A DNA stretch of 64,000 nucleotides from an uncultured Candidatus Bathyarchaeia archaeon (GTDB lineage: Archaea; Thermoproteota; Bathyarchaeia; 40CM-2-53-6; DTDX01), in assembly GCA_964608455.1 (NCBI GenBank), contig CAZSNM010000005.1, positions 4,069 through 68,068 of the forward strand, read 5' to 3'. The notes under the pieces are model-generated. The model was not told the origin of the DNA, ran no database searches, and was given only the letters and a program-made list of their open reading frames with translations. The translations under genes were made by a program, and so were the position numbers. Numbering within the stretch: the first letter of the stretch is position 1; each line of letters starts with the position of its first letter. This document shows, one piece after another, positions 4,797 to 63,796 of this stretch.

Positions 4797-5921
4797 TTAA
4801 AATGGAAAGGCTATAAAGCATAGAATTAACATAACTATGGAAAGTATATAAAGAATTTTTCTAGAGTTGCTTAATGGAGAAACATCATCTAATGGTTCAG
4901 CACCTATTACTCCTCGTCCACTTCCAAACATCCATAACAAAAGAAATAGAGCAAAAAACCAATATCCCGAAAAAATCAATATAATTAACCCAATTAAAGA
5001 AGCGACTTTATGTCCTGAAGCCCCGAATATAGCTCGAGCTACATGACCTCCATCAAGTTGCCATATTGGAAGAATATTTAAAAATGTTAGTAAAGCGCCA
5101 ACCCAGGCAGCAAACTCTATTTGAGTTAAAACAAGCCTAAAACCTTGAGGAATTTGACGAATCAAAGGTAAAAGAATTTCAAATAATAATGGTGATTTTG
5201 GCCAATCCATTCTTTGAACTAGTTTTTGCTGCTCCCAAACGGCTACTTCAGCTTCAGGCACAAGAAAACCTAATTGAAAACTTAATATAGCTATAAGAAT
5301 TGTAGCTATAAACCCTGCAAATGGACCTGCAAATCCTATATCAAAAAGCTCATCCTTATTTGTTGGAGGAGACTTTAATGATACTATTGCTCCAAAAGTT
5401 CCAAATGGTGGAGGACCAGGAATAAAATATGGTAAAGAAAAAGTTAATCCATGAATTTTACAAGCAAGAATATGCCCTGATTCATGTAAACCAATTATAG
5501 CAAAAAGCGATATAGTGAATAAAGCTGCTTGAAGAAAAGCATTTTCACTTTTCATTAAAATTTCTTTTAATATTGGAGTATTAATGAAGCTATAGTATCC
5601 GGCTAAAAATATTGTTCCTAAAGTTGCGCTTAATAATATAAGGTTTAAAAGGTTGCTTTTTCCTTTTCTTTCAAAAGGTTTTAAAAGAATTTTTATAACA
5701 TATCGATTTTCTTCTTTTCTTAAAAAAGGCATTAAATTAAGTTTCATAAATTCTTTAGAAGCTTTCTTAAAGTTTTCCTTGGTTATTTCAGGTGAAATAA
5801 TAAAGTTTGGAATTCCCTTTTCATCTATATATGCATCTAACACATTAAATTTAGAGGAAATTAAAGCTTTTAATTCAGGGAATGAAGGATAATAGGGTGT
5901 TTCTAAATAATTAAAAGCCAT
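4797..5921 (-). CDS. site-2 protease family (M50) membrane metalloprotease
   Basis: HExxH (HESGHILA) inside a TM helix, an LDGG motif (WQLDGGHVARAIFG), and multiple TM segments. Confidence 0.75.
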   Translation of the reverse strand: MAFNYLETPYYPSFPELKALISSKFNVLDAYIDEKGIPNFIISPEITKENFKKASKEFMKLNLMPFLRKEENRYVIKILLKPFERKGKSNLLNLILLSATLGTIFLAGYYSFINTPILKEILMKSENAFLQAALFTISLFAIIGLHESGHILACKIHGLTFSLPYFIPGPPPFGTFGAIVSLKSPPTNKDELFDIGFAGPFAGFIATILIAILSFQLGFLVPEAEVAVWEQQKLVQRMDWPKSPLLFEILLPLIRQIPQGFRLVLTQIEFAAWVGALLTFLNILPIWQLDGGHVARAIFGASGHKVASLIGLIILIFSGYWFFALFLLLWMFGSGRGVIGAEPLDDVSPLSNSRKILYILSIVMLILCFIAFPF

Positions 5922-6043
5922 TCTACTTCATCCTTTTAATTGGGATAATGATGTTTAATCTTATTTATTAATTTTATGAAATAATAATTGAAAATTAAAT
6001 AGAAAAACTTTAATAAAAATGAAGGTTTACGAATTTTCAGGAT

Positions 6044-6520
6044 TTGATAAAAATGTTTGTTATTAGAAGGTTTAATCCAAACGATTTGAATGCTGTAATC
6101 GAAATAAATAGAAGATGTCTTCCTGAAAATTATACAATTAATTTCTTTATGGATATTTATAGAAATTGTCCTGAAGCTTTTTTAGTGGCTGAAGCTGAAG
6201 ATAAAATTGTTGGATATATAATGTGCAGATTAGAATATGGCTTTTCAGATTTTAACAGATTTAAACTTGTTAAAAAGGGGCATATTGTTTCAATAGCTGT
6301 ACTTAATGAATATAGACGAAAAGGAATAGGTTCATCTTTAATTGCTCAAGCCTTAAAAGAGCTTGCTAATGCTCAAGCTAAAGAATGTTATTTAGAGGTT
6401 AGAATTACTAATGAAGCGGGAATAAACCTTTATAAAAAGTTTGGTTTTGTAATTACTCAAAGAATAGCTTATTATTATCATGATGGAGAAGATGCTTACG
6501 TAATGTCTAAAAAGCTTTAA
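6044..6520 (+). CDS. GNAT family N-acetyltransferase (RimI/Ard1-like)
   Basis: 158 aa with the acetyl-CoA binding motif RRKGIGSSLI. Confidence 0.75.
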   Translation: MIKMFVIRRFNPNDLNAVIEINRRCLPENYTINFFMDIYRNCPEAFLVAEAEDKIVGYIMCRLEYGFSDFNRFKLVKKGHIVSIAVLNEYRRKGIGSSLIAQALKELANAQAKECYLEVRITNEAGINLYKKFGFVITQRIAYYYHDGEDAYVMSKKL

Positions 6521-15463: not shown

Positions 15464-15748
15464 TTAATCCTCTTCAGATTCTAAAAGAAGTTTCAAAGGA
15501 ATGTTCTGGCTTGTTCCATCTGGAAGCTGACGTCTAATGCTTATGGGTAAAATGCCTTCTTTCAATTCTAAAAGAGCTATTTCAATTGGAGATTTAACAC
15601 TTGGAGGTACATCTATTAATACAGGTGCTCCCATAGCTATTTGCATTGCTCGAGCCCCGACAATCCTAGTTTTTTCAAAGCGGGTAAGCTTTTTAGGACC
15701 GATCAGCGTAGTCTCTATAGAGTTAAGTTTCTCCGAGTTCTTCACCAC
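15464..15748 (-). CDS. rpoK: DNA-directed RNA polymerase subunit K (RpoK/Rpb6)
   Basis: [25 protein letters not shown] matches the RpoK/omega signature; 94 aa. Confidence 0.8.
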
Positions 15749-17402
15749 TCTCTTCTGGCCCCTTTGATGGCCCTTTTTCTTCTTTAGTTTTAGAAGCTGC
15801 TATTACATCATCTATTCTTAATATCATTGTTGCAGCTTCGCTTGCAGATTTAATAACTTGCATTTTAACAGCTAATGGTTCATAAACATCAAGTTTACTC
15901 ATATCAGCAACTTTACCCGAGAATACATCTACTCCAGCCCATTTTTCTCCTTTATCATGTTTAGCTCTTAACTCTGTAATTATATCTATTGGATCTAAAC
16001 CAGCATTTTCAGCTAAGGTCATTGGTATGCTCTCTAAAGCTTCAGCAAAAGCTAAAACAGCTAACTGTTCTTTTCCAGCTAGCTTCTCAGCATATTGCCT
16101 TAACCTTCTAGCGACTTCAGCTTCAGGTGCTCCACCGCCAGCTACTACTCTTGGGTCTCTAACAACATCTCTAACAACGCATAAGGCGTCATGAATGGCT
16201 CTTTCAGCTTCATTAACTATTCTTTCTGCACCTCCACGAACTAAAATAGTAACAGACTTAGGGTTTTTGCATCCTTCCACAAAAGTCATTTTATCATCTG
16301 CAACTTTTCTTTCTTCAACAAGTTTAGCAAAACCTAGATCATTTGGAGTTAAATCATCAAGGTTTGTTATTATCTTTCCTCCTGTAGCTTTAGCCAGTTT
16401 TTCCATATCAGATTCTTTAGCTCTTCTGACGGCTAAAATTCCTTTTTTAGCTAGGAAGTGTTGAGCCATATCATCGATTCCTTTTTGGCAAATAACAACG
16501 TCAGCTCCAGCTTTAGCAATTTTTTCAACCATTTCTTGAAGCATTCTTTCTTCTTCTTTAAGAAAAGCATCCATTTGCTCAGGTGTTTCTATGTTTATTT
16601 TAGCGTCCATTTCTGTTTTTTCTATTTCTAAAGGACAATTAAGCAAAGCTATTTTAGCGTTTTCTATTCTTTTAGGCATGCCTGGATGAACAACTTCCTT
16701 ATCAAGTACAACTCCTTTAACTAGCTTTGTATCCATTAGGGATTCTCCAGCTTTTTTTTCAACTTTCACATCGTCAATATCAACTTTATAACCTTCCAGA
16801 GTTTTTTCAGCCACCTGAAGAATAGCATCAACAGTTAAATCCGCTATATAATCTTTATATTCTGAAAGCAGTTTACTAGCTACAGCTACTTTAGCAACTT
16901 TCTTTAAAAATTCTTTATCACTTGGTTCCACTTTAATAGCTATTTCTTCAAGAGCTTTAAGAGCTTCTTCAGAAGCGGCTCTATAACCATCAACGATTAC
17001 AGTTGGATGAACATCTTTATCAATAAGCTCCTCAGCTTTAGTAAGGAGTTCTCCAGCTAATACTACGGCGGTTGTTGTTCCATCTCCTACTTCATCATCT
17101 TGTGTTTTAGCTACTTCAACCATCATTTTAGCTGCTGGATGTTGAACATCAATCTCATCAAGAATAGTAGCCCCATCATTAGTAATAGTAACATCACCAA
17201 AGCTGTCAACAAGCATTTTATCCATTCCCTTTGGTCCTAGGGAGCTTTTTACAGTTTCAGCGATAATTCTAGCAGCAGTAATATTTGCATGTTGAGCTTC
17301 TCTTCCTCTAGATCGGGTAGTACCTTCTTTTAATATCAAAATCGGAGTTCCAGCAAGTTCTGGAGTGGATTCGACTGCCATACCATAAAACCCCCTTTTC
17401 AA
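15723..17402 (-). CDS. ths: thermosome subunit (group II chaperonin)
   Basis: 559 aa with GPKGMDKML, the [12 protein letters not shown]-binding motif and a GDGTTT loop. Confidence 0.95.
16641..17228. repeat. 588-bp tract, identical apart from a single mismatch, to 61282-61869 in inverted orientation
   Basis: Direct nucleotide comparison of the reverse complement with the second thermosome gene: identical including synonymous sites, flanked by diverged sequence. Confidence 0.85.
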
Positions 17403-17799: not shown

Positions 17800-18021
17800 T
17801 TAAGATGTAGATTTGGCAAATTTAGTTATTTTAGAACCACATACTGGACATGTAGCTCTAAGCAAAATTCTTCCTTTGCTTGTTGTTTCTTTTTGTACAG
17901 CATTATCATCTACAGATACCTTTTTCCTGCATTTAACACAAAACATTTCCATTTTTCTATTCAACCTCCTTTTATCATAGAAAACTAACACATTATTTTT
18001 ATTAGCAGATAATAGTTCCAT
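17800..18021 (-). CDS. small zinc-ribbon protein
   Basis: 73 aa with CVKC ... CPVCG. Confidence 0.4.
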   Translation of the reverse strand: MELLSANKNNVLVFYDKRRLNRKMEMFCVKCRKKVSVDDNAVQKETTSKGRILLRATCPVCGSKITKFAKSTS

Positions 18022-19181: not shown

Positions 19182-19700
19182 ATGAGTGCTAATGAAGAAA
19201 AAAAAGTTAGAGTTCAAATAGAATATAATGGATTAAAACATAGTGTAGAGGGTTCAGTTGAAGAAGCAATAAAAGAAGTGGTAAATTTTCTTTCTAAGGT
19301 ATGTCCCACATACGATGTAGCTTCAAAAATTATTTATGCGCCAAATTATATAGAAATTTTAAATGATCTTTCAGAAATAGTTAATTTAACTCCAAATGGG
19401 GAACTAATACTTTTAAAGCAAATACCTTCAACAGATGAAGCTATAGGAGTGCTTCTTTTAGCTGTTGAAGTGGCTTATAAACTTGGAAAAAGAAAAACAA
19501 ACGCTTTAAGCGCCGAAGAGTTAACAAAAATTCTTGGCAAAGCTGAAAAAACCATTAGAAACACTATAGCTGAAATGATTAAAGCAGGGTTAATTGAAAG
19601 AATTGAAAAAGGAACATATCATATTACAATCGTTGGTGTAAAAGAAGTAAGTGAATTTATAAAAATGCTTAAAGAAACTTCGGAAGATAAACAAAAATGA
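19182..19700 (+). CDS. wHTH protein, paralog 3 of 3
   Basis: 172 aa with NTIAEMIKAGLIERIEKGTYHITIVG. Its stop overlaps the next start (ATGA). Confidence 0.55.
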   Translation: MSANEEKKVRVQIEYNGLKHSVEGSVEEAIKEVVNFLSKVCPTYDVASKIIYAPNYIEILNDLSEIVNLTPNGELILLKQIPSTDEAIGVLLLAVEVAYKLGKRKTNALSAEELTKILGKAEKTIRNTIAEMIKAGLIERIEKGTYHITIVGVKEVSEFIKMLKETSEDKQK

Positions 19701-20818
19701 CATTTAATTTAAAGGAGGGAAAAAGAATTAAAACAAACGATATATACGCGTCGTTTAGAAATTCAATAATAAATGAAGTTTTTTTAAATGAAAAAACTCA
19801 ACTGTTAAAAGAAGAGTTAATTCCAAATTTCCTAATTAAATTAAGCGATTTTTCAATGAAAACAATGAGAGATTCCAGTTCCAATTTTATTCAAGCTTCT
19901 CCAGAATTGGAATTTGATGATGAACCTCAATTATGTTTAAATATTAAAGAGGAGTTAAGCGAACCAATTCCCATTTATCCAAATTATAAGGATTCAACAA
20001 TAATTGCTATTGATGTCTCAAGTATAAAAATTGGAGAGACAAATGATGGTGTTATATGTGCCATTAGAGGAGCTGTTGTTTGGAGAAAACAAGGAGAAGT
20101 AAACTTTTTCAGATGCGGACCATTAATTTTTCATATAACCGATTTTATTATTGAACAATTATATGGTAATGTAGGAGTTAAAGCTTTAGAGTTTCCTATA
20201 GGGATAGTTTCAAGACTTAGGAATTTACTTGAAAGATTTATTCAAGGAAATGTATGCACCCACTTTAAAGATTCAATAATTCTTTTTGATGGAAGTTTAA
20301 CAGCTGGCACTCCTGATAATCCAACTAACAGTTTAACTCAAATCCTTTCTAAAGCTAAAGAAAATGGAAATATTGTTTTAGCAATTTCAAAAACTACTAA
20401 AATAGGTTTATCAGGAGTTAAATTGTCAGAGCTTCTAAAAAACTTTAAGGGACCGTGTCTTTTAGATATAGATGAAAGTATAAGATCGCTTTTTCCAAAT
20501 CATCCAGTTCAACTTCTTGGGAAAGTTTATGCAACTAAACTTTCAGCTAAAGGTTTATCTTTTAGACTTGATGTAGATAGAAAAGTAGATCTTAAAGAAA
20601 CAATAGATTCTTTAGGAAAATTAATAGTAAATGATATTATAGATTACGGGTATCCAGATACTTTAAGGCTTGCTCATATATTTTCATCCTTTACAGCAAG
20701 TGATGTTATAGGTATACAAAGATTCCTTTCAAAGAAATTTAAGATACAAATAGTTCCAAAAATTAATTTAAGAAGAATTCTCTTCGGTCCATTTGGAAAT
20801 CCAATGGAGGTTTCCTAA
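19697..20818 (+). CDS. NurA-like nuclease domain protein
   Basis: 373 aa with an N-terminal IIAIDVSS motif resembling the NurA DGS catalytic motif. Translationally coupled on both sides. Confidence 0.45.
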   Translation: MTFNLKEGKRIKTNDIYASFRNSIINEVFLNEKTQLLKEELIPNFLIKLSDFSMKTMRDSSSNFIQASPELEFDDEPQLCLNIKEELSEPIPIYPNYKDSTIIAIDVSSIKIGETNDGVICAIRGAVVWRKQGEVNFFRCGPLIFHITDFIIEQLYGNVGVKALEFPIGIVSRLRNLLERFIQGNVCTHFKDSIILFDGSLTAGTPDNPTNSLTQILSKAKENGNIVLAISKTTKIGLSGVKLSELLKNFKGPCLLDIDESIRSLFPNHPVQLLGKVYATKLSAKGLSFRLDVDRKVDLKETIDSLGKLIVNDIIDYGYPDTLRLAHIFSSFTASDVIGIQRFLSKKFKIQIVPKINLRRILFGPFGNPMEVS

Positions 20819-22257
20819 TGAAAATTTATAAAAAGGAAGGTGATGTAATTCAAATAATAAGTTTTCCAAATGAAATTGTGGAGAAAGGAGATTATCTTTT
20901 AATTGAAGACCCAATTGTAGATAAAGGTCTTTTAGTTCAAGTTATAGATATTCAATTCGCAAATGTTCCAGGAGTATTTGAAGATATTTTAAGAGATGCC
21001 GTGTTAGAGGAAGGAATTGAAGGAGAAAATTATGATCCAATGGAGGTTTCCTCTCAAATATCAATATTAAAAGATACAAAACTTTTAGTATGTAGAATAA
21101 GAGGGGTTTTAAGTAATGGAGAAATAGTTTTTGGAATGAATTATTTACCTTCAAGAACTTTATCTAGAATAATTCCATATAAAATTGAGAATTTTATTAA
21201 TTCAACAAGTAGAAGCAGACCTTTTCAAGTTGGAAAAATTAGGGGAGAAGCAGAATTAATTTTAGATGTTAAAGCTTTAGATGGAAAATTAAATATTGTA
21301 ACAGGAAGGAAGGGTACAGGAAAATCTCATTTAGCTAAGCTATTAATTTTAAACTTAGTTAAATATGGTGCTCCATGCATAATCTTCGATATAAACGGTG
21401 AATACATAAATTTAAATAAGAAAAAAACGGGGGAAACTTTAAAATTTGGTAAGTTTATAACGTTAACCCCAAAAATTAATATGAAATTTACTTTATCTCA
21501 AGCTAAGCTTACTCCAGTATTAAATATGATGATTTATTCATTAGATTTGCCAAGCACTTCAGCTAGAGTTTTTATCAAGATTTGGAGAGAATTAGAAAGG
21601 AGAGGAGAATTAAATTTAACTTCTTTAGGTGAAGCCATATTAAAATGGGATTGCCATGAAAGCGTTAGAGATGCATTATATGCTAGATATAATATGATTA
21701 TTGAATCTGGGTTATTTACAGATAATATTAATGAATCTTTAGATTTTGAATTTTTAATGAAAAGCATATCAAATGGTGGAGTTGTTGTAATTAATTTAAA
21801 GAATCAACCAGCTATGATTAGAAAAATGATTGTTGAATTAACGCTTAATAAGCTTACGGAGCTTTTATCAAACTGGAAGCTTCAAGCAATATTTTTATTT
21901 GCTGAGGAAGCTCATCTTTATTTAAGAGAAACCTATTGGGATGATATAGTAACTAGAATGAGACATCTTGGAATATTTACAACTTTTATAACTAATCAAC
22001 CTGATACAATTCAAGAGACAATTTATCGACAAGCCGATAACATTTTCCTATTTAACTTTTCAAATGAGCATGATTTAGAGGTTGTTTCTAAAGCAGCTAA
22101 AATAGATTCTGAAACAATTAAAAAAATAGTTAAGGAGCTCCCACCACATTATTGTTTAATAATAGGAGATGTAGTAAATAATTTTCCAGTGGTAGTGAAA
22201 GTTGAACCGCTTGAATTTGAAACGATGGGGGAAACAAGATTCTTCTTTAAAAACTGA
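20818..22257 (+). CDS. HerA-like (DUF87) HAS-barrel P-loop ATPase
   Basis: N-terminal HAS-barrel-like beta region, Walker A GRKGTGKSHLAK immediately followed by IIFDINGEY (HerA/VirB4-type), and Walker B IFLFAEEAHLYL. Confidence 0.65.
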   Translation: MKIYKKEGDVIQIISFPNEIVEKGDYLLIEDPIVDKGLLVQVIDIQFANVPGVFEDILRDAVLEEGIEGENYDPMEVSSQISILKDTKLLVCRIRGVLSNGEIVFGMNYLPSRTLSRIIPYKIENFINSTSRSRPFQVGKIRGEAELILDVKALDGKLNIVTGRKGTGKSHLAKLLILNLVKYGAPCIIFDINGEYINLNKKKTGETLKFGKFITLTPKINMKFTLSQAKLTPVLNMMIYSLDLPSTSARVFIKIWRELERRGELNLTSLGEAILKWDCHESVRDALYARYNMIIESGLFTDNINESLDFEFLMKSISNGGVVVINLKNQPAMIRKMIVELTLNKLTELLSNWKLQAIFLFAEEAHLYLRETYWDDIVTRMRHLGIFTTFITNQPDTIQETIYRQADNIFLFNFSNEHDLEVVSKAAKIDSETIKKIVKELPPHYCLIIGDVVNNFPVVVKVEPLEFETMGETRFFFKN

Positions 22258-25858: not shown

Positions 25859-27064
25859 TCACCTTTTTAAGCTTGTAATCCAATTATAAATTTTTTCAGT
25901 CTCTTCTTTAACAGTTAATTTTTTAATTACTTCCTTAACGGTTTTAACAGCAGCAGGATGCATCATCATAAAATAGTCTACCCCAGCCAAAAGCAAAGTT
26001 AAGGCTGAAACAGTTTCCCAAATTGGTCCCCTAAGCTCCTTGGGACCCCATTTTGACTCCATAGTCATCCAAGCTTCTCTAGCAGCCCAAGCATTTGTTG
26101 TTCCTGAAGAAATTGGATGTTGAAGTTCAGCATCACCCATTAATGCGGCTAATCTAGTTCTTTCCATAACTGTAAAAGCATAATCTAAACCATAACCTAA
26201 AGCAGCTGTTGTTGTATCAATTACAATCTTATTTTTAGGTAAAAATTCATATAATTTACGATTTAATTCCCTAGCATCATCCATATTCATAGCTGTAAAA
26301 GCTATAACACAATGATTGTGTTTTTTAATGGCTTCCGCAACTTTTTTGATATCCATGTTTAAAGTTACTGAATTAAATAAAATGTTTTCTCCTTCAGCAA
26401 CTTCAGCAACTTTCTCGAAAACTTTTAAATCTTTTTCCGGATCACCACAACCACCAACAGTTAAAGGAACATCAACTGCTTGAAGAACGTCCTCAACTGT
26501 TTTAGCTGCTTCTGAAGGTTTAGTATCCTTAAGAAGGGGATCTATGCTTACTAAATGAAGGTTTATTACTTCAGCACCCCACTTTTCCACAGCTTTTTTA
26601 GCCCATGCTACAGGATCCTCAAGAACATCTTCCACATGCATTTTTACAGCTTTAGCTAAAGGAATCTTCATATCAAAAACATCTATGGAGATTACTGGAG
26701 GGTTTGGCGGTGGCGATTCAAAAAGATAAAATGCTGGTGCTTTTTCACCTCCTATAGTTACTGTTTTACCTCTTGAGCCTCCCTCGCTTTTAGTTGCACC
26801 AATTTTAACCTCAACTATTTCTCCAGGATATTTCATTATTGGTGGATGAAACTCCTCCTCTAAAATCTCTTTTGGTTTAACTTTTGGAGGAGCCTCAATT
26901 TTAGGTAATGGAATCCGGCTTATAAAAGGTTGAAGTAAAAACTCTAATTCTTTAACTTTTATCTCAACATTTTCAAGCTCTATTTCTTGAAATTCACTTA
27001 AAAGCTTAATTATGTCAAATCCAAAATCACTAAAATCTTCTTTTTCCTTATTCTTTTTGCTCAT
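25859..27064 (-). CDS. cdhD: ACDS delta subunit (corrinoid Fe-S protein small subunit, CdhD/AcsD)
   Basis: 401 aa TIM-barrel-like ORF between cdhC and cdhE; stop/start overlap with cdhC. Confidence 0.7.
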   Translation of the reverse strand: MSKKNKEKEDFSDFGFDIIKLLSEFQEIELENVEIKVKELEFLLQPFISRIPLPKIEAPPKVKPKEILEEEFHPPIMKYPGEIVEVKIGATKSEGGSRGKTVTIGGEKAPAFYLFESPPPNPPVISIDVFDMKIPLAKAVKMHVEDVLEDPVAWAKKAVEKWGAEVINLHLVSIDPLLKDTKPSEAAKTVEDVLQAVDVPLTVGGCGDPEKDLKVFEKVAEVAEGENILFNSVTLNMDIKKVAEAIKKHNHCVIAFTAMNMDDARELNRKLYEFLPKNKIVIDTTTAALGYGLDYAFTVMERTRLAALMGDAELQHPISSGTTNAWAAREAWMTMESKWGPKELRGPIWETVSALTLLLAGVDYFMMMHPAAVKTVKEVIKKLTVKEETEKIYNWITSLKR

Positions 27065-28461
27065 TTAGTTTTTCCCTCCCTTCTAATTATAGCTTTTTTA
27101 GCCGTTATTGTTGCGTCTTTTAAAATAATTTTGAATCCTCCTCCAGTTGTTAAGGGAAGAGTTGAAGCTTCCATTACAATAGGTGGCGCTTCTTCAATTT
27201 TTGGTGCAGCAACCTCTTCTTTTTTCTCTTTTTCTTCGATCTCCTTCCATCTTTGAATCACAGGATGATTTTTACTTTTAAGAAAGTTTTTTAATTCTTC
27301 TATTGTTTTAACATCGTTTTCAGTAGCTATTTTATCCACTATATCTTTTGGAATAAAATCTTTAACTCTTTCTTTAATACTGGATGGCATCCATACAATT
27401 CTATTCCATCCACCATCAGCTTGAAGAAATTTTGAAGAACGCATATATTCTATTGAGATTCCATGAAAACCATCAACTTGTCTACCTCCAGCTGTTGAAT
27501 CGGCCATAGTTGAAAACGGCAAACCGTTTACAGCTACACCTTTAAAATCTCTATGAATTATTCCAAGCCCATCAACCTCAGGTATATAAAAGGCTATTGC
27601 TTCAAAGCATCCACAAGAAGTATGAGGATAGTTAAAAGCTGTGTAAAGCCATACTCTTTCAATTTCTCCAAGTGATTTTTTCTTAACAGCCTCATTTACA
27701 CCACTCCATTCTCCTTTAAACGAATCTAAAACTTTTCCAACTTCTATTTTAAATATTGGACCTTTAGGATCTACTCTTGCAGCTGCTCTTCCATCAAACC
27801 AGCTTATGGCTCCGCAATTAGCATATCTTTGTGGGGTTATTACACATACATGGGTTGGAGCAAAAGATTGACAAAGTGTACAACCATAAAAACAATCCAC
27901 TTCTTCATCTTTTAATCCTCTAGCTCTAGCATCTCTTTTTTCATAAATTTCTCTAGCTATTTTTTCCATTTCTTTAACTTTTTCTTGATCAGTAATAAAT
28001 GTTATTTGAATTTTTTCTATTATTGGAAGCTCGCTTTTAAAAAGTCTTTGAAGGACTTTCCCTATTAAAATAAAGGAGTTTAAACCTTTTTTAAATGATT
28101 TTTTGCTTAACCTTAACCAGATATCATATCTTTGATTTAAATGCATAAAGCCTTCAATATAATTACAATATTCATGTATTCTTCTTTCTATAACGCCTTC
28201 AAGATCTTCTTCAATTTCTTTTCCAGCTACTTCAACAAGAATTCCTAGAGGATAACTTTTTCCTTCTTCTAAATCCTTAATATCTGGGCCTATAATTTGA
28301 ATTTTTCCATCTTCTATTTCATCCATTTTTCTAGCTTTTACAAGTTCAAATTTATTTTCTACTTTTGGTCCTCCAAACTCAACATGCATATCTGGCTTTC
28401 TAATTCTTTCACCTTCATAAATAACTCCAACATCAACTGGAATATCACTAAACATTGACAT
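27061..28461 (-). CDS. cdhC: ACDS beta subunit (acetyl-CoA synthase, CdhC)
   Basis: A-cluster motifs CFYGCTLCQSFAPTHVCVITP and HTSCGCFEAIAFYIPE; 466 aa. Confidence 0.9.
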   Translation of the reverse strand: MSMFSDIPVDVGVIYEGERIRKPDMHVEFGGPKVENKFELVKARKMDEIEDGKIQIIGPDIKDLEEGKSYPLGILVEVAGKEIEEDLEGVIERRIHEYCNYIEGFMHLNQRYDIWLRLSKKSFKKGLNSFILIGKVLQRLFKSELPIIEKIQITFITDQEKVKEMEKIAREIYEKRDARARGLKDEEVDCFYGCTLCQSFAPTHVCVITPQRYANCGAISWFDGRAAARVDPKGPIFKIEVGKVLDSFKGEWSGVNEAVKKKSLGEIERVWLYTAFNYPHTSCGCFEAIAFYIPEVDGLGIIHRDFKGVAVNGLPFSTMADSTAGGRQVDGFHGISIEYMRSSKFLQADGGWNRIVWMPSSIKERVKDFIPKDIVDKIATENDVKTIEELKNFLKSKNHPVIQRWKEIEEKEKKEEVAAPKIEEAPPIVMEASTLPLTTGGGFKIILKDATITAKKAIIRREGKTK

Positions 28462-28465
28462 AATT

Positions 28466-28996
28466 TTAACCTCCTTCTAAAGCCTTAATTAAAATATTTA
28501 AGCTTTTAATCCAATCGTTTATGGTTAAATTTGGAAAAGACCATGAAGCATGAGGTTGATAAAATCTATCAAGAGAAATCGTTATAATGTTTGAAAAATG
28601 TTTTATTCCGGAAAGTACAAGCCACTCTACATAATATGGAATAGCTATAAATAATGCTAGATCATGTGAACCTAAACCATCAACTCCACTCCAGTTTGGA
28701 TCTATAAGTTTGCTTCCAACTTCCACTATAGACATAAGGGAAACTGGAATAAACTTTTTAATTTCAGCGAAAGATTTTCCAGATGCCACCACAGGTATTT
28801 TTCCTGCTTTAGCAATTTTAACAATATATTCTATGAGTTTAATTTCATTGTTTGTTTCTTCAACAGCTTCATGACCAACTATAAGCACAGGATGTTTAGC
28901 TCTTTTTATTAATGTAGCTGCAACCTCAGGTTTTTGAATTATAAAACTTTTTGTTGGACCTGGAATTTCAGCTTTTTGCCATGGTTCAGCAGCCAT
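28466..28996 (-). CDS. cdhB: ACDS epsilon subunit (CdhB)
   Basis: 176 aa ORF immediately downstream of cdhA, in the conserved operon position. Confidence 0.7.
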   Translation of the reverse strand: MAAEPWQKAEIPGPTKSFIIQKPEVAATLIKRAKHPVLIVGHEAVEETNNEIKLIEYIVKIAKAGKIPVVASGKSFAEIKKFIPVSLMSIVEVGSKLIDPNWSGVDGLGSHDLALFIAIPYYVEWLVLSGIKHFSNIITISLDRFYQPHASWSFPNLTINDWIKSLNILIKALEGG

Positions 28997-28998
28997 TT

Positions 28999-31344
28999 TT
29001 ATTCCCTTCTTTTTCTAATTAATCTCGGTAAAAGTGTTGGATCAGGAATAATATTTTCTTTCCATCCCTTCTCCTTTAAAAATTCTAAAACTTCATCTTT
29101 CATAGTTATCGGTATGTCGGCAACTGTTCTAACGAATAGATGAAGATCATTAGGTAATGTTCCATATATTTTTTTATGCAAATCTATATAATGGGTAAGC
29201 TTTATTGCTCGCCCCTTTGTTGTATCATTTGGTCTCATGCAAAGCTTTGGAATCATAACTATCGCTTCTTCTTTACTTTCAGCTGAATAAAACAAATGTT
29301 CTGGAACTGGTCCAACATAAACTTTTTCTCCAGTTCTAGCATCATAAACATACCAATCTTCTTGATTTTCTTTTTTTCCTAAAAGCATTCTTCTATATTT
29401 AAATCCATGAGGGCCGACTATAACTGGTATTCCCAGCCTCCAAAATCCGCTGGCTATTGAAGCAGCTTTTTGAGACATTGCTCCCCAACCTACTCCAACA
29501 GCTCCAACTCTATTTAAAATATAATCAGCTATTTCCTCATAGTTTCCACGAAGTCTTCGTTTAGCAAATATGCTTGCTATTTTTATAGCTGCTCCAGCTA
29601 TATGAGAATTTGAAACACATGAACCAACATTGCTTACACCTCCAGCATCGAAAACTCCAGGATACATTTCATAAATTGTTTTTCCTTCACCATTTTTGTG
29701 CATAGCCATAGACATTGCTGCGCAGCCTGAAGCAACAATTATATAGTTTCTTTTAGCAAATTCCTCAGCCATTTCAGCAACCTCTTTACCGCTTTTAGGG
29801 TAGTTAGCGCATCCAACAAATGCTATAACGCCTGGAATTTCACCTAAAACTATTGGGCTTCCAACCTGACGAATTTCAACATCTTGAATAGCTCCTCTTC
29901 CAACTCTAATTTTAAATTTTTCCTCTTTAAGATTTTTCTCTGCAGCAACCTCCATAAAAGAATGAATGGGAAGGTCAATTGGGCAAGCGCTTTCGCATCT
30001 ACCGCAACCTATGCATAAATCCAGTAAATCAGCTAAATTTTTTAAATTTCCTTTTGAAGCTTCTGTTAATGCTTCAGGAATGGGCAAATTGTTTGGGCAA
30101 GCTCTGGAACATTCAAAACATTTTCTGCATTTTTTAGCTCCTTCAATAACACCTTGAATATCTGGAATGGCTTTAAATTTAGCTCTTTTAGGTGCAACTA
30201 ACAAAGCTGTTTTAACAGCAATTTCCCCCACTTTTTCTGGATCAAGTATTAAAGCACCCGGTATCACACCATTAACTAATTCATTAATTACATTGGTAGG
30301 CTGCTCAAAGGTTTTATCAATTAGACCTAAACAATTTTTCTCGCTTGTAGCAATTAATGGAGCTTTAATTTTTTGAGCTTCACTTAAGGCATCAGCCCTA
30401 ATGCATTGTTCATCCACAACAATTACATCTGGAATTCCAGATCTAATAAATCTTAACTGCCAAGATATTGGTCCGACAATTTTAGCTTTAGGATCATATC
30501 TTGAGAGGTCATGCGCTGTACAGCATATTCCACAAACTTCAACTTCATTTTTAAGTCCATTATCCTCTAAATAATCAACGATGCTTATAGCTGATGGAAC
30601 ATTATGACCTATAACAAGAATTACTGGTTTAGAGTTATCAACAACTCCAAAACCTATTTCAGTTAATGGGGCGTCAGGATCAGCTTTAGGAAAGCCATAA
30701 GCAGAAATCTGAGCTATATCAGCTACCTCCATAGCTGTATGATCAAGCATTCCTGCATGGAAAACCTTTGATTCAAAATCTATGAAACTCCCTTCTTGTC
30801 CAGTATGAGTGGCTGAAAGCAACTTTACTATTTCCCTTTCTACATAATTTAAAACTTCTTCCAAATCTCCTAATGTTTTAGGTCTTATTCCACAAACCAA
30901 TCTAATAATTGGAGCTTCAACTTCAACGCTTACACCTCCAACGTCTATTGGCCATTTTCTACCATATTTCTCTATTAAGTGCTCTACTAAATGTCTAGCA
31001 TGAGCTGTATGCGTAGCAGCACCAATACAGCATGCTAATAAAACTATTCTTGATTGTTGAGCAGGCATTGTTAAACCGCAAGCACCTTTTTTATCCTTTG
31101 TTAAATCGCATTTACCCATTGTGCATAAGCAGCAAACATCGCAAAAAGGCATATAAAAAGGTTTGTATCTTTCAAGAAGCTTTAAATCCCAATTTCTTAA
31201 ATCTGAAATAGATGGGAAAGGTGTAGGACCAGTTTCTTCCTCCCAAGCTTCCTCAAGAATTTTCCCAATAGAAATTTCAAAATCTTTTATTTCACCTAAA
31301 CTTGTTTTTAATTCCCCTATTTTTAGCTTTAAGGTTTTACTCAT
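28999..31344 (-). CDS. cdhA: ACDS alpha subunit (CO dehydrogenase catalytic subunit, CdhA)
   Basis: 781 aa with multiple Cys clusters (CDVCCLC, CRKCFECSRACP, CIGCGRCESACP ferredoxin-like inserts) and CODH C-cluster-region Cys/His. Confidence 0.9.
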   Translation of the reverse strand: MSKTLKLKIGELKTSLGEIKDFEISIGKILEEAWEEETGPTPFPSISDLRNWDLKLLERYKPFYMPFCDVCCLCTMGKCDLTKDKKGACGLTMPAQQSRIVLLACCIGAATHTAHARHLVEHLIEKYGRKWPIDVGGVSVEVEAPIIRLVCGIRPKTLGDLEEVLNYVEREIVKLLSATHTGQEGSFIDFESKVFHAGMLDHTAMEVADIAQISAYGFPKADPDAPLTEIGFGVVDNSKPVILVIGHNVPSAISIVDYLEDNGLKNEVEVCGICCTAHDLSRYDPKAKIVGPISWQLRFIRSGIPDVIVVDEQCIRADALSEAQKIKAPLIATSEKNCLGLIDKTFEQPTNVINELVNGVIPGALILDPEKVGEIAVKTALLVAPKRAKFKAIPDIQGVIEGAKKCRKCFECSRACPNNLPIPEALTEASKGNLKNLADLLDLCIGCGRCESACPIDLPIHSFMEVAAEKNLKEEKFKIRVGRGAIQDVEIRQVGSPIVLGEIPGVIAFVGCANYPKSGKEVAEMAEEFAKRNYIIVASGCAAMSMAMHKNGEGKTIYEMYPGVFDAGGVSNVGSCVSNSHIAGAAIKIASIFAKRRLRGNYEEIADYILNRVGAVGVGWGAMSQKAASIASGFWRLGIPVIVGPHGFKYRRMLLGKKENQEDWYVYDARTGEKVYVGPVPEHLFYSAESKEEAIVMIPKLCMRPNDTTKGRAIKLTHYIDLHKKIYGTLPNDLHLFVRTVADIPITMKDEVLEFLKEKGWKENIIPDPTLLPRLIRKRRE

Positions 31345-31449
31345 TTTAAATCACTTTTTTTACTTAAATTTAAAAAAAGACAAAAATAAACCTCTTAATT
31401 TAATTCTTTGAGTTAATAGAGTTATTCTTAATGGTATTTTAAAGATGTT

Positions 31450-33363
31450 TTAGCTTTTTAAACTTTTTTCTAAAACTGGATGATTAACTTTTTTTAGGAA
31501 AATTTTTAATTCCTCAATGTTTTTAGCTTCTTCCTCAGTAGCTATTTTACCATAAAGTTCACTTGGAATAGCATCTTTCACTTTTTCTTTCAGAGCTTTA
31601 GGCATCCATACAATTCTATTCCATCCACCATCAGCTTTCAAAAATTTGCGAGATTTAATATATTCTATTCCTATGCCCAAAAAACCTTCAACTTGTTTTC
31701 CTCCACCACAGAATCCAGCCATAGCTGGAAAATTCATTCCATTAACAGTTGGTTCTCTAAAACTTCTGTCTACAATTCCTATTCCATCAATTTCAGGAAT
31801 ATAAAAGGCTATTGCTTGAAAACATCCGCAAGAAGTATGAGGATGACCAAATATACTATGAAGATAAACTTTAGCTATAGAATTATGAGATTTAACTTTA
31901 ACAGCCTCATTTACACCACTCCATTCCCCTTTAACAGGATCTATACATTCCCCTTTATTTATTGGAAAGTTTGGTCCTGATGGATCTACACGATAAGATA
32001 TGCTTGCATCAAGCCAGCTTGTAGCACCGCATAAAGATATTCTTTCAGGAGTTATTACACATACATGGGTTGGAGCAAAAGATTGACAAAGTGTACAACC
32101 ATAAAAACAATCCACATTTTCCTCGGTTAACTCTTTTATTTTTAAATCTCTCTCCTTATATATTTTTTTGGCTTCATTAATTTTTTCTTCAACAATAGCT
32201 GGGTTAGTTAAAATTGTTACTTGAACTTTTTCTACTAAACGAGGAAAAGTTGAATGGAACATAAAGTATAGGATTTCCCCTAAATGTTTAATCTTTAAAT
32301 TTTTTTGAGTAGCCTCCTTGCTTATTCTAATCCATATTTCATCCCTAGAACCTAAATGCATTATTCCTTTAGCTTGATTTAAAAATTTATGAATACGTCT
32401 TTCAAAAACAGGTTCTAAAGTTTTCTCAAGTTTTGAACCTGCTAATTCAACTATTATTCCAAGCGGATAACTTTCCCCTTCCTTCATTTCATTAATTTCT
32501 AAACCCTCGACTTTTATTAAACCATCATTAACTTCATTCATAGATTTAATTTTAACAAGTTCAAAAGCTAAAGTTTTTCCTCCTCCAAATTCTACAAACA
32601 TTTCAGGTTTTCTTATTTTTTCACCTTCATAAATTGCCCCATACTCTATTGGTAAGGGGGGTTTAACAAATTTTTTTAACTTAATTTTTTTAGCATCGCA
32701 TCCAGCTTCAATAATTTTTTCATAGCTTGCTTGATAAATAAATAATGGGAAATCTTTTAGTTCAGGTTGATCAACAATTACAGGTATTCCTAAGCTTGAG
32801 AGCCCCACACCTATAGCCAAACCTTTATTATCAAGTTTTCCAAGCATTATAGCGAAGGTTGGAACCCTATTCTTAATATAACTTTTAATAGCTTCTTTAT
32901 CTCCAGGTTTAACTCCCCCAAACATTAATGGTGCTCTAATAATCAAATTTGCAGCATGAACAATTGATGAAAATTCTAATCCTAAAGGAATAATTTTTTC
33001 CTCTAAACCAAATTTAATGCCTATTTTCTCTATTTGATTTAAAACTAAACCTGAAACTAAACATAAAAGGTTTGTTTCTTGAATATCTTTGAGTAATTCT
33101 TCAGCAAGCGATTCTGCTTTAGCTAAACCATAAATTAAAATTACTCCTGGAATTGTTCCATTAGCTAACTCTAAACTAACTTCTCTAAAAGTTGCATCAG
33201 AAATAAAGCGTTTCAATTCTTTATTAAAAGCGTAATTAATAGCTTCAATAATTTCAAGCCCCATGAGTGAAGCTAAACCAATATTTAAAAGTTTTTCTTC
33301 ATTTTTACCTTCTTTGCTAATTAAAGATTTACATAAAATTATTGCTCCATTTAAATCTTTCAA
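31450..33363 (-). CDS. acetyl-CoA synthase (CdhC/AcsB) paralog with an N-terminal extension
   Basis: The C-terminal 400 aa are roughly 70-80% identical to CdhC (CFYGCTLCQSFAPTHVCVITP, HTSCGCFQAIAFYIPE). It carries an extra ~220-aa N-terminal domain; 637 aa in total. Confidence 0.8.
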   Translation of the reverse strand: MKDLNGAIILCKSLISKEGKNEEKLLNIGLASLMGLEIIEAINYAFNKELKRFISDATFREVSLELANGTIPGVILIYGLAKAESLAEELLKDIQETNLLCLVSGLVLNQIEKIGIKFGLEEKIIPLGLEFSSIVHAANLIIRAPLMFGGVKPGDKEAIKSYIKNRVPTFAIMLGKLDNKGLAIGVGLSSLGIPVIVDQPELKDFPLFIYQASYEKIIEAGCDAKKIKLKKFVKPPLPIEYGAIYEGEKIRKPEMFVEFGGGKTLAFELVKIKSMNEVNDGLIKVEGLEINEMKEGESYPLGIIVELAGSKLEKTLEPVFERRIHKFLNQAKGIMHLGSRDEIWIRISKEATQKNLKIKHLGEILYFMFHSTFPRLVEKVQVTILTNPAIVEEKINEAKKIYKERDLKIKELTEENVDCFYGCTLCQSFAPTHVCVITPERISLCGATSWLDASISYRVDPSGPNFPINKGECIDPVKGEWSGVNEAVKVKSHNSIAKVYLHSIFGHPHTSCGCFQAIAFYIPEIDGIGIVDRSFREPTVNGMNFPAMAGFCGGGKQVEGFLGIGIEYIKSRKFLKADGGWNRIVWMPKALKEKVKDAIPSELYGKIATEEEAKNIEELKIFLKKVNHPVLEKSLKS

Positions 33364-42676: not shown

Positions 42677-42913
42677 ATGGTTTTAGCGTATGTATTAATT
42701 AATTCTGAAATAGGCAAGGAAAACGAACTTCTTAAAGCATTAAAAAATATTGATGGAGTTAAAGAAGTTTTCAGTGTTTATGGCGTTTATGATATAATAG
42801 CTAAGGTTGAAGGAAAAACAGTAAATGAATTAAAAGAAGTTGTTATTGCAAAAATTAGACAGTTAAATTATGTAAGGAGTACCTTAACAATGATAGTTAT
42901 GGAGAATATGTAG
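42677..42913 (+). CDS. stand-alone Lrp/AsnC RAM domain protein
   Basis: 78 aa; VYGVYDIIAKVEGKT. Paralog of 4493-4729, 53198-53449 and 57780-58040. Confidence 0.65.
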   Translation: MVLAYVLINSEIGKENELLKALKNIDGVKEVFSVYGVYDIIAKVEGKTVNELKEVVIAKIRQLNYVRSTLTMIVMENM

Positions 42914-53197: not shown

Positions 53198-53449
53198 ATG
53201 CTGAGGAGGATGAAGTTGGCGTTAGCGTTTGTTTTAATAAATGCTGAAATAGGTTCTGAAAGTGAACTTGTAGAGGAGCTTAGAAAAATGCCATATGTTA
53301 AAGAAGCTTATTTGGTCTATGGTGTTTATGATATAATAGCTAGAATTGAAGCTGAAAGTATGGATAAACTAAAAGAAATAGTTACATGGAAAATTAGAAA
53401 ACTAAATAAGGTTCGTTCAACTTTAACAATGATTGTTATGGAAAGTTAA
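53198..53449 (+). CDS. stand-alone Lrp/AsnC RAM domain protein
   Basis: 83 aa; VYGVYDIIARIEAES. Confidence 0.65.
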   Translation: MLRRMKLALAFVLINAEIGSESELVEELRKMPYVKEAYLVYGVYDIIARIEAESMDKLKEIVTWKIRKLNKVRSTLTMIVMES

Positions 53450-61134: not shown

Positions 61135-62778
61135 ATGATGAAGATGGCTTATCTTGCTGGTCAACCGATTTTAATACTTAAGGAAGGGACTAGCAGAAGG
61201 AAAGGTAGAGATGCTCAAAAAGCAAATATTACTGCTGCTAGAATTATCGCTGAAACTGTAAAAACAACGCTTGGCCCTAGAGGAATGGATAAAATGCTTG
61301 TTGACAGCCTTGGTGATGTTACTATTACTAATGATGGGGCTACTATTCTTGATGAGATTGATGTTCAACATCCAGCAGCTAAAATGATGGTTGAAGTAGC
61401 TAAAACACAAGATGATGAAGTAGGAGATGGAACAACAACCGCCGTAGTATTAGCTGGAGAACTCCTTACTAAAGCTGAGGAGCTTATTGATAAAGATGTT
61501 CATCCAACTGTAATCGTTGATGGTTATAGAGCCGCTTCTGAAGAAGCTCTTAAAGCTCTTGAAGAAATAGCTATTAAAGTGGAACCAAGTGATAAAGAAT
61601 TTTTAAAGAAAGTTGCTAAAGTAGCTGTAGCTAGTAAACTGCTTTCAGAATATAAAGATTATATAGCGGATTTAACTGTTGATGCTATTCTTCAGGTGGC
61701 TGAAAAAACTCTGGAAGGTTATAAAGTTGATATTGACGATGTGAAAGTTGAAAAAAAAGCTGGAGAATCCCTAATGGATACAAAGCTAGTTAAAGGAGTT
61801 GTACTTGATAAGGAAGTTGTTCATCCAGGCATGCCTAAAAGAATAGAAAACGCTAAAATAGCTTTGCTTGATGCACCATTAGAAATAGAGAAAACAGAAA
61901 TAAGCGCCGAAATAAGAATTAGAGATCCAGCTCAAATGAAGGCTTTCCTAGATGAAGAAACAAGAATGATGAAGGAAATGGTTGAGAAAATCGCCAAAAC
62001 AGGAGCTAATGTTGCTCTTTGCCAAAAAGGAATCGATGATATGGCTCAGCATTTCCTAGCTAAAAAAGGAATAATGGCTGTTAGAAGAATAAAGAAGTCA
62101 GATATGGAGAAATTAGCTAGAGCAACAGGTGGAAAAATCGTTACAAACCTAGATGACCTTAAACCATCAGATTTGGGAGAATGCAAACTAGCTGAAGAAA
62201 GAAAGATTGGAGATGATAAAATGGTTTTCATCGAGGGATGCAAAGATCCTAAATCTGTAGCAATATTAATTAGAGCGGGATTAGAAAGACTTGTGGATGA
62301 AGCTGAAAGATCATTAACTGATGCCTTATCAGTAATAGCAGATGTTTATGAGAAAAATAGAATTGTTGCTGGAGGAGGAGCTGTTGAGGCTGAATTAGCT
62401 AAAAGACTAAAAGAATATGCTGCTAAGGTTGGTGGTAGAAAACAATTAGCTATAGAAGCATTTGCTAAATCATTGGAAATTATTCCAAAGGCTTTAGCTG
62501 AAAATTCAGGTTTAGACCCTGTAGACATAATGGTTTCGCTTAGAGCAGCTCATGAATCCCCTGATGGAAAATGGATGGGAGTTGATGTTTACACAGGTAA
62601 AATAGAGGATATGATGAAGAAAGGCGTAATAGAACCTGTTAAAGTTAAAGAGCAAGCTATTAAATCTGCTGTTGAAGCAGCCGCTATGATTCTTAGAATC
62701 GATGATGTTATAGCTGCAGCTAAACCACCGCCAACTCCATCCAAGAAAGGTGAAAAAGGAGCATCTGAAGAAGAATAG
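61135..62778 (+). CDS. ths: thermosome subunit (second paralog)
   Basis: 547 aa group II chaperonin; C-terminal Gly/Pro-rich tail. Confidence 0.95.
61282..61869. repeat. 588-bp inverted copy of the 16641-17228 tract (thermosome gene-conversion segment)
   Basis: Identical nucleotides apart from one mismatch, compared by eye. Confidence 0.85.
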
Positions 62779-63692: not shown

Positions 63693-63796
63693 GCGGGGGT
63701 TGCCAAGCCAGGTCAAAGGCGCAGGGCTTAGGATGAATATATACATAGGAGACCCTGTCCCGTAGGGGTTCGTGGGTTCAAATCCCACCCCCCGCA
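63693..63796 (+). tRNA. tRNA-Leu (TAG) with a 19-nt canonical intron
   Basis: Acceptor GCGGGGG/CCCCCGC, discriminator A, no encoded CCA. 3-bp D-stem GCC/GGC. Anticodon stem CAGGG/CCCTG with loop CTTAGG|intron 63733-63751|A. Long variable arm (CCCGTAGGGG). T-arm GTGGG TTCAAAT CCCAC. Confidence 0.75.

Follow-up and report, generated by a model that had tools for sequence, protein, structure and literature searches.

A stretch of 64,000 nt from an uncultured Candidatus Bathyarchaeia archaeon (GenBank assembly GCA_964608455.1, contig CAZSNM010000005.1, positions 4,069 to 68,068; referred to here as the window) carries two thermosome paralogs, genes A and B (Table 1), part of which forms a long and almost perfect inverted repeat. 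The window has a G+C content of ~30%, and the two genes are inverted relative to each other, with their 5' ends facing across the intervening 44 kb. Both products score far above the cut-off of 400 bits for the NCBIfam model NF041083 (thermosome_beta), the two genes reach 820 and 805 bits with TIGR02339 (cut-off 671), and among solved structures the A and B proteins are best matched by thermosome subunits of Sulfolobus and Thermococcus, with E-values of ~1e-204. Judged by these matches, A and B are full-length group II chaperonin (thermosome) subunits. The ATG start of gene A is backed by orthologues and by the database protein P0001, which matches it at 100% over 552 residues, the TTG at 17402 proposed by the open reading frame (ORF) finder lying upstream; for gene B there is an alternative ATG at 61135, and protein P0121 is a 100% match. 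The closest proteins to both all carry the annotation Bathyarchaeia or Bathyarchaeota. From the fact that two distinct paralogs have been kept across the six genomes compared below, we infer that the A and B subunits may join in a hetero-oligomeric double ring.

Table 1. Position of the thermosome genes, of the repeat and its component segments, and of a further gene cluster in the window. B nt, nucleotide of gene B (window position minus 61137, the ATG of gene B being at 61138).
Feature	Position	Strand	Partner in gene A	Basis
Thermosome paralog A, 552 amino acids, putative tract donor	15723..17381	-		ORF; thermosome_beta 856 bits; database match P0001
Thermosome paralog B, 546 amino acids, putative tract acceptor	61138..62778	+		ORF; thermosome_beta 856 bits; P0121
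588-nt inverted repeat, arm in gene A	16641..17228	-		Self-comparison and base-by-base alignment
588-nt inverted repeat, arm in gene B	61282..61869	+		Self-comparison and base-by-base alignment
S0, B nt 85-127, 43-nt identical patch	61222..61264	+	17246-17288	Cross-genome alignment
S1, B nt 145-324, encodes GMDKMLVDS...	61282..61461	+	17049-17228	Cross-genome alignment
Middle segment, B nt 325-669, 345 nt, 115 codons	61462..61806	+	16704-17048	Cross-genome alignment
S2, B nt 670-732, 63 nt, 21 codons	61807..61869	+	16641-16703	Cross-genome alignment
S3, B nt 881-911, identical patch	62018..62048	+	16462-16492	Cross-genome alignment
Carbon monoxide dehydrogenase (CODH)/acetyl-CoA synthase cluster: cdhC (466 amino acids), cdhB (176), cdhA (781), second cdhC paralog (637)	27061-33363	-		

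Self-comparison of the window, as suggested with the original prediction, recovered a single long inverted repeat (16333-17357 versus 61153-62177, 90% identity), and a base-by-base comparison of the reverse complement of the A arm with the B arm confirmed that this repeat has a core of 588 nt containing exactly one mismatch. The two arms lie 44,053 nt apart. The sole mismatch (61309 C versus 17201 T) falls in codon 59 of gene B, where it distinguishes Leu from Phe (B nt 172), leaving a perfect run of 560 nt (B nt 173-732). Outside the tract the two proteins are 70.8% identical over residues 1-48 and 68.1% identical over residues 245-470, in good agreement with the ~70% that had been estimated, and at this background of 70% identity a row of 560 identities would be expected by chance with a probability of ~1e-87. 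The identity also extends to third codon positions, as had been claimed: at positions encoding the same amino acid in both paralogs, all 189 codons of 189 are identical within the tract, against 85 of 148 (57%) outside it (P ~1e-46), and synonymous divergence (dS) between A and B is 0 in the tract and 1-1.7, i.e. saturated, outside. The 588-nt identity is thus real, and chance is excluded.

The availability of both paralogs from related genomes allowed us to dissect the tract. We compared their DNA in six genomes, the window and five Bathyarchaeia relatives (G2-G6): G2 is a JGI contig of 166 kb with both genes in the same inverted layout, ~44 kb apart; G3, G4 and G5 are contigs of 263, 121 and 111 kb, each with both genes; and G6 is an NCBI metagenome-assembled genome (MAG). 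A scan of species-representative genomes with generic peptide patterns returned, among the matches listed, only distant thermosomes with at most 73% identity and no orthologous pairs. In G2-G6 the paralogs already share several identical patches, and seen against them the tract of the window is a composite of S1 (180 nt), a middle segment (345 nt) and S2 (63 nt). S1, which holds the sole mismatch as well as the residues of the nucleotide-binding motif NDGATIL, present in both proteins, and the GDGTTT motif, shows perfect runs between A and B of 146-152 nt in all five relatives (nt 173-324, or nt 145-324 with one mismatch). For S2 the perfect runs in the relatives are 32-57 nt (nt 670-725), compared with 63 nt in the strain of the window. 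Upstream, and separated from S1 by 17 nt with nine mismatches, lies S0, a perfect run of 43 nt in G2-G4 and of 35 nt in G6, with 93% identity and no run of at least 25 nt in G5; downstream, S3 has perfect runs of 47-55 nt in the relatives (nt 886-935). The middle segment behaves differently from these patches: in the relatives its A and B versions have 60-61% nucleotide identity and differ at 65 of 115 residues. By the usual domain boundaries of thermosomes, S1 would be the ATP-binding part of the equatorial domain and S2 the start of the apical domain, while the middle segment would run from the last part of the N-terminal equatorial segment through the N-terminal segment of the intermediate domain to the first apical residues. 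The Leu/Phe codon at nt 172 separates A from B orthologues in four of the five relatives (G2-G5), and the single mismatch in the tract is therefore not a mutation that followed conversion.

The variable sites of the patches group by genome. Of the 14 sites that vary in S1 among the six genomes, at least 10 group by genome and not by paralog: at sites 147, 165, 168, 186, 219, 276 and 313 both G6 paralogs have one base and the paralogs of all other genomes have another, and at sites 201, 288 and 303 G5 and G6 differ jointly, in both paralogs, from the remaining genomes. The same genome-wise grouping was found at sites 93, 99 and 111 of S0, 693 and 706 of S2, and 894, 897, 900 and 909 of S3. Outside the patches, that is at the 5' end, in the middle segment of the relatives and in the 3' parts, the sequences group by paralog. 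At the level of sequence comparison, these concerted sites prove that recurrent gene conversion between the thermosome paralogs of this lineage keeps S0-S3 homogenised, and the alignments demonstrate an exchange that is patchy, non-reciprocal and ectopic, taking place in genes that are otherwise saturated at synonymous sites. The original prediction had taken the whole tract as the signature of recent gene conversion. Conversion between the paralogs holds for the lineage, given the genome-wise grouping of 10 or more of the 14 sites in S1; a single recent event of 588 nt is not established, ~240 nt of the tract being old and recurrently homogenised.

Conversion also appears to be active at the strain level. 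Outside the middle segment, the window and JGI contig L088, which comes from another sample, are set apart over ~8 kb by no more than three substitutions and a single-base indel, and two of the three substitutions are A-type bases inside gene B, at 61202 and 61309 (B nt 65 and 172), with the neighbouring B-specific sites kept, which looks like patchy micro-conversion. In the opposite direction, gene A of the strain group of the window is of B type at B nt 726 and 729 (16647 and 16644), unlike gene A in G2-G4. It is because of these two bases that S2 measures 63 nt in the window strain, which suggests that a small B-to-A conversion lengthened it from 56 to 63 nt. As a separate observation, dS in S1 between species (window versus G5) is ~0.14, about four-fold below that of the rest of either gene (0.5-0.6), and conversion alone does not obviously explain this low value.

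The middle segment of gene B is where the window departs from its relatives. Orthologues of A (P0002-P0005) are 97-99% identical to the A protein of the window, whereas the best orthologues of B (P0122-P0128) are only 87-88% identical to its B protein, although they include proteins from the same long contigs as the A orthologues with 98-99% identity. The lower value arises because the middle segment differs: the B orthologues are almost identical to B of the window except at residues 109-223, where all of them have a B-type sequence (LLRYGEELLNENIHPTIIVSGYKEAAEK...) and the window has the sequence of A. At the nucleotide level, the middle segment of B in the window is identical to that of A in the window (100%), with 93.9% identity to A of G2, 85.2% to A of G5 and 60.6% to the B type, and it includes residues specific to the A gene of this strain (EPSDKEF, EKTLEGY). 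Gene A itself is 100% identical over its length to the independent JGI contig L081 and has kept its own A-type middle segment. As B thus holds the sequence of A with the strain-specific changes of A, and A is unaltered, A would be the donor and B the acceptor, and on this comparison the change in the middle segment shows itself to be non-reciprocal, from A to B. It must also be very recent, since there are no differences in 560 nt and the near-identical L088 is still of B type. Among the assemblies searched, an A-type middle segment in gene B is, by its sequence, private to the contig of the window. The B-type segment is strongly conserved, with a ratio of nonsynonymous to synonymous divergence (dN/dS) of ~0.09 between L088 and G5, and a converted gene would be unusual among B alleles and probably disfavoured by selection.

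We lean, with restrained confidence, towards a very recent A-to-B gene conversion as the source of this segment. In such an event a break or gap would arise in the middle segment of B and its repair would be templated by A, with S1 (152-180 nt) and S2 (63 nt), identical in the two genes, acting as homology arms and the divergent 345 nt between them being copied, by gap repair or synthesis-dependent strand annealing through the archaeal RadA pathway. The resulting B subunit would have A residues at 65 positions, in the equatorial end, the intermediate-domain segment and the apical start. As a rule, selection probably eliminates tracts of such length, and this would account for the allele having been seen only once. 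Furthermore, S2 is shorter than ordinary Illumina reads, so that few assemblers would be expected to change paths there, and the window differs from the JGI contigs at shared single-nucleotide polymorphisms and indels and is thus a distinct strain, for which a strain-specific allele is plausible. (We also asked whether homopolymer indels betray a long-read origin of the contig and rejected the idea: no more than four exist, each within an intergenic run of A or T, the one at 17970 is shared by two JGI contigs, and they resemble strain differences.) Several observations weigh against conversion as the origin of the middle segment. A full-length search of 5.8 billion proteins found no second converted B; a search of the same number of proteins with junction peptides gave nothing above 74% identity, which is weak evidence given that only short proteins (at most 335 residues) were returned; the eight loci that a pattern scan for S1 returned from JGI metagenome contigs all have the canonical form; and L088, with only the four differences described above, has an ordinary B middle segment at its positions 5722-6066. 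In addition, the ends of the tract coincide with exact repeats that the paralogs already had in common, the A- and B-type middle segments are of equal length, as in the 'bulge' geometry of an assembly graph, short-read data seldom give a single contig that passes through two perfect 560-nt copies of a repeat, and assemblies at S1 are error-prone or polymorphic.

Much of this would be expected if the genome had an ordinary B and the segment were an assembly artefact, a possibility which we take seriously without thinking it the probable one. Here the 345-nt path of B would have been collapsed, as if it were strain variation, onto that of A between the shared S1 and S2 nodes, after which the contig would have followed the merged edge at each of the two loci; a merger of fragments by overlaps in S1 and S2 could do likewise. 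The flanking repeats are indeed exact (S1 152-180 nt and S2 56-63 nt in the strain group), with boundaries already present in relatives, the two alternative segments align over 345 nt without gaps, the allele is a singleton in the public data searched, and other assemblies break or give hybrid genes at S1. Bulges larger than those that SPAdes would collapse are merged by metaSPAdes, which afterwards bases its repeat resolution on the projected paths (PMC5411777); merging equal-length paths and reusing them in this way would yield an A-type segment at both loci, an output that would match the tract. That procedure, however, is aimed at strain variants, whereas the alternative paths here are paralogs with 61% identity, forming a long bulge (~400 k-mers) with equal coverage expected on both sides. 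Moreover, the artefact requires a final k of at most 62, S2 being 63 nt, or else a permissive overlap merger, and reads of 100-150 nt would span S2 and contradict the path. The window strain is also not identical to the JGI strain with the unconverted allele, and real micro-conversions exist in its strain group. Two further explanations fare much worse. Reciprocal exchange by two successive crossovers, an inversion at S1 followed by re-inversion at S2, could draw on inverted genes with suitable homology and on the S1-crossover hybrids seen in other assemblies, but it would leave a B-type middle segment in A; we reject it because A retains its own, in a gene 100% identical to L081, and consider it highly improbable. 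With no recombination at all, the identity might stem from very strong purifying selection, or from codon constraint, acting on a conserved region of the protein, which would fit the position of S1 in the best conserved part of the gene product and its roughly four-fold lower synonymous divergence between species. Yet in every other genome the middle segment is 39% divergent in nucleotides and differs at 65 of its 115 residues, and at least 10 sites of S1 have derived states common to both paralogs of one genome, a pattern which constraint does not produce. In view of these concerted sites, we reject nucleotide-level selection as the cause of the identity and regard its chance of being correct as negligible.

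The original prediction had also flagged the inverted pair as a substrate for inversion and a hazard for assembly, and other assemblies do end in S1 or contain hybrid genes with swapped flanks. Hybrids with the 5' part of A and the 3' part of B were found in L082 (JGI 3300017406, from the strain group of the window), P0130 (ENA) and L098 (GCA_038868775.1, a MAG of the G6 species), the converse hybrid in L097 (GCA_038871755.1, another G6 MAG), and in P0137, which belongs to a more distant species, a B-like body follows an A-like 5' end. The junctions fall within S1, with a matching exchange of the flanking genes: L097 corresponds to G6 B over nt 1-327 and to G6 A from nt 178 on, and L098 is its mirror image. 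Upstream, the flanks are marked by DUF5679 on one side and on the other by the histone-fold gene immediately before gene B; downstream, they are marked by Rpb6 and by an ORF of 223 residues. Further contigs or partial proteins start or end inside S1 (L092, L095, P0010, P0011 and P0167). Both reciprocal junction types are therefore represented, from different MAGs or samples, and all hybrids are on contigs of at most 12.5 kb. The inverted arrangement was seen on none of the five contigs that span both genes (the 64-kb window, itself part of a contig of 69 kb, and the 111-263-kb contigs of G2-G5), all of which are parental. From their sequence the hybrids are consistent with inversion of the 44 kb by crossover at S1, and also with mis-joins at an inverted repeat of 150-180 nt. 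It seems unlikely to us that S1 is a real recombination switch at which crossovers invert the 44 kb, the hybrids in five independent assemblies from at least three species-level lineages being real isomers. As both 5' ends face inwards, an inversion would give each gene body the promoter and the first ~58 codons of the other. If such a switch did exist, it would mean a population polymorphism in the regulation of the two subunits, and long conversion tracts would be its non-crossover products.

Other features of the window can be mentioned briefly. Based on the gene calls of L082, genes with matches to DUF87 (HerA-like ATPase) and, faintly, to NurA lie at ~19697-22257, a few kb upstream of gene A; these would be DNA-end-resection functions, and their position beside a recombining locus is probably a coincidence. 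In the CODH/acetyl-CoA synthase cluster, the second cdhC paralog has an N-terminal extension of ~235 residues, and the two cdhC genes explain three direct repeats of the self-comparison (D1, D2 and D4; 70-76% identity, 4.2 kb apart). Another direct repeat (42758-42903 and 53297-53442) is 146 nt long, with 72% identity between copies 10.5 kb apart. Rfam finds a tRNA of 104 nt (45 bits) at 63693-63796 on the plus strand that ARAGORN does not report, probably an intron-containing archaeal tRNA.

Gene conversion between thermosome genes is not new in itself. Archibald & Roger reportedly described in 2002 (J Mol Biol 316:1041; J Mol Evol 55:232) that it homogenises archaeal thermosome paralogs, mainly in conserved parts such as the ATP-binding equatorial domain. 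Their taxa were crenarchaeal and euryarchaeal, whereas the lineage studied here belongs to the Bathyarchaeia, and the evidence here is at the nucleotide and strain level, with exact patches, polymorphic boundaries and a possible 345-nt event in one genome which, unlike the conversions they are said to have found, crosses a functionally diverged segment. The phenomenon is thus known, and what is new is the lineage and the base-level, strain-level resolution. A further parallel is offered by tufA and tufB of Salmonella and E. coli, distant and inverted essential paralogs that are said to be kept alike by RecA-dependent gene conversion (Abdulkarim & Hughes 1996; Hughes 2000) and between which, reportedly, recombination can also invert the intervening segment. 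Near-identity extends over the whole of the tuf genes, whereas the thermosome paralogs are ~30% divergent with only short patches homogenised, and inversion is here only suggested, by hybrid contigs. For prokaryotic paralogs more generally, long-lasting or recurrent concerted evolution (PMC6053082) and conversion between RF1 and RF2 (PMC4530459) have been described. The likeness is that repeated conversion makes paralogs within a genome closer to each other than to their orthologues in part of the gene; those accounts are on a phylogenetic scale, while here the boundaries could be mapped to the base together with differences between strains.

On a practical matter, exact inverted repeats of 150-180 nt in the thermosome genes of this clade break contigs and yield hybrid genes, and care is therefore needed with chaperonin phylogenies and with the gene content of MAGs at this locus. 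If the central tract is real, it would be a rare snapshot of a long conversion between functionally diverged chaperonin subunits, taken before selection has acted on it. In that case, the tract and the old patches together would show gene conversion supplying variants and selection confining homogenisation to the ATP-binding core of the thermosome.

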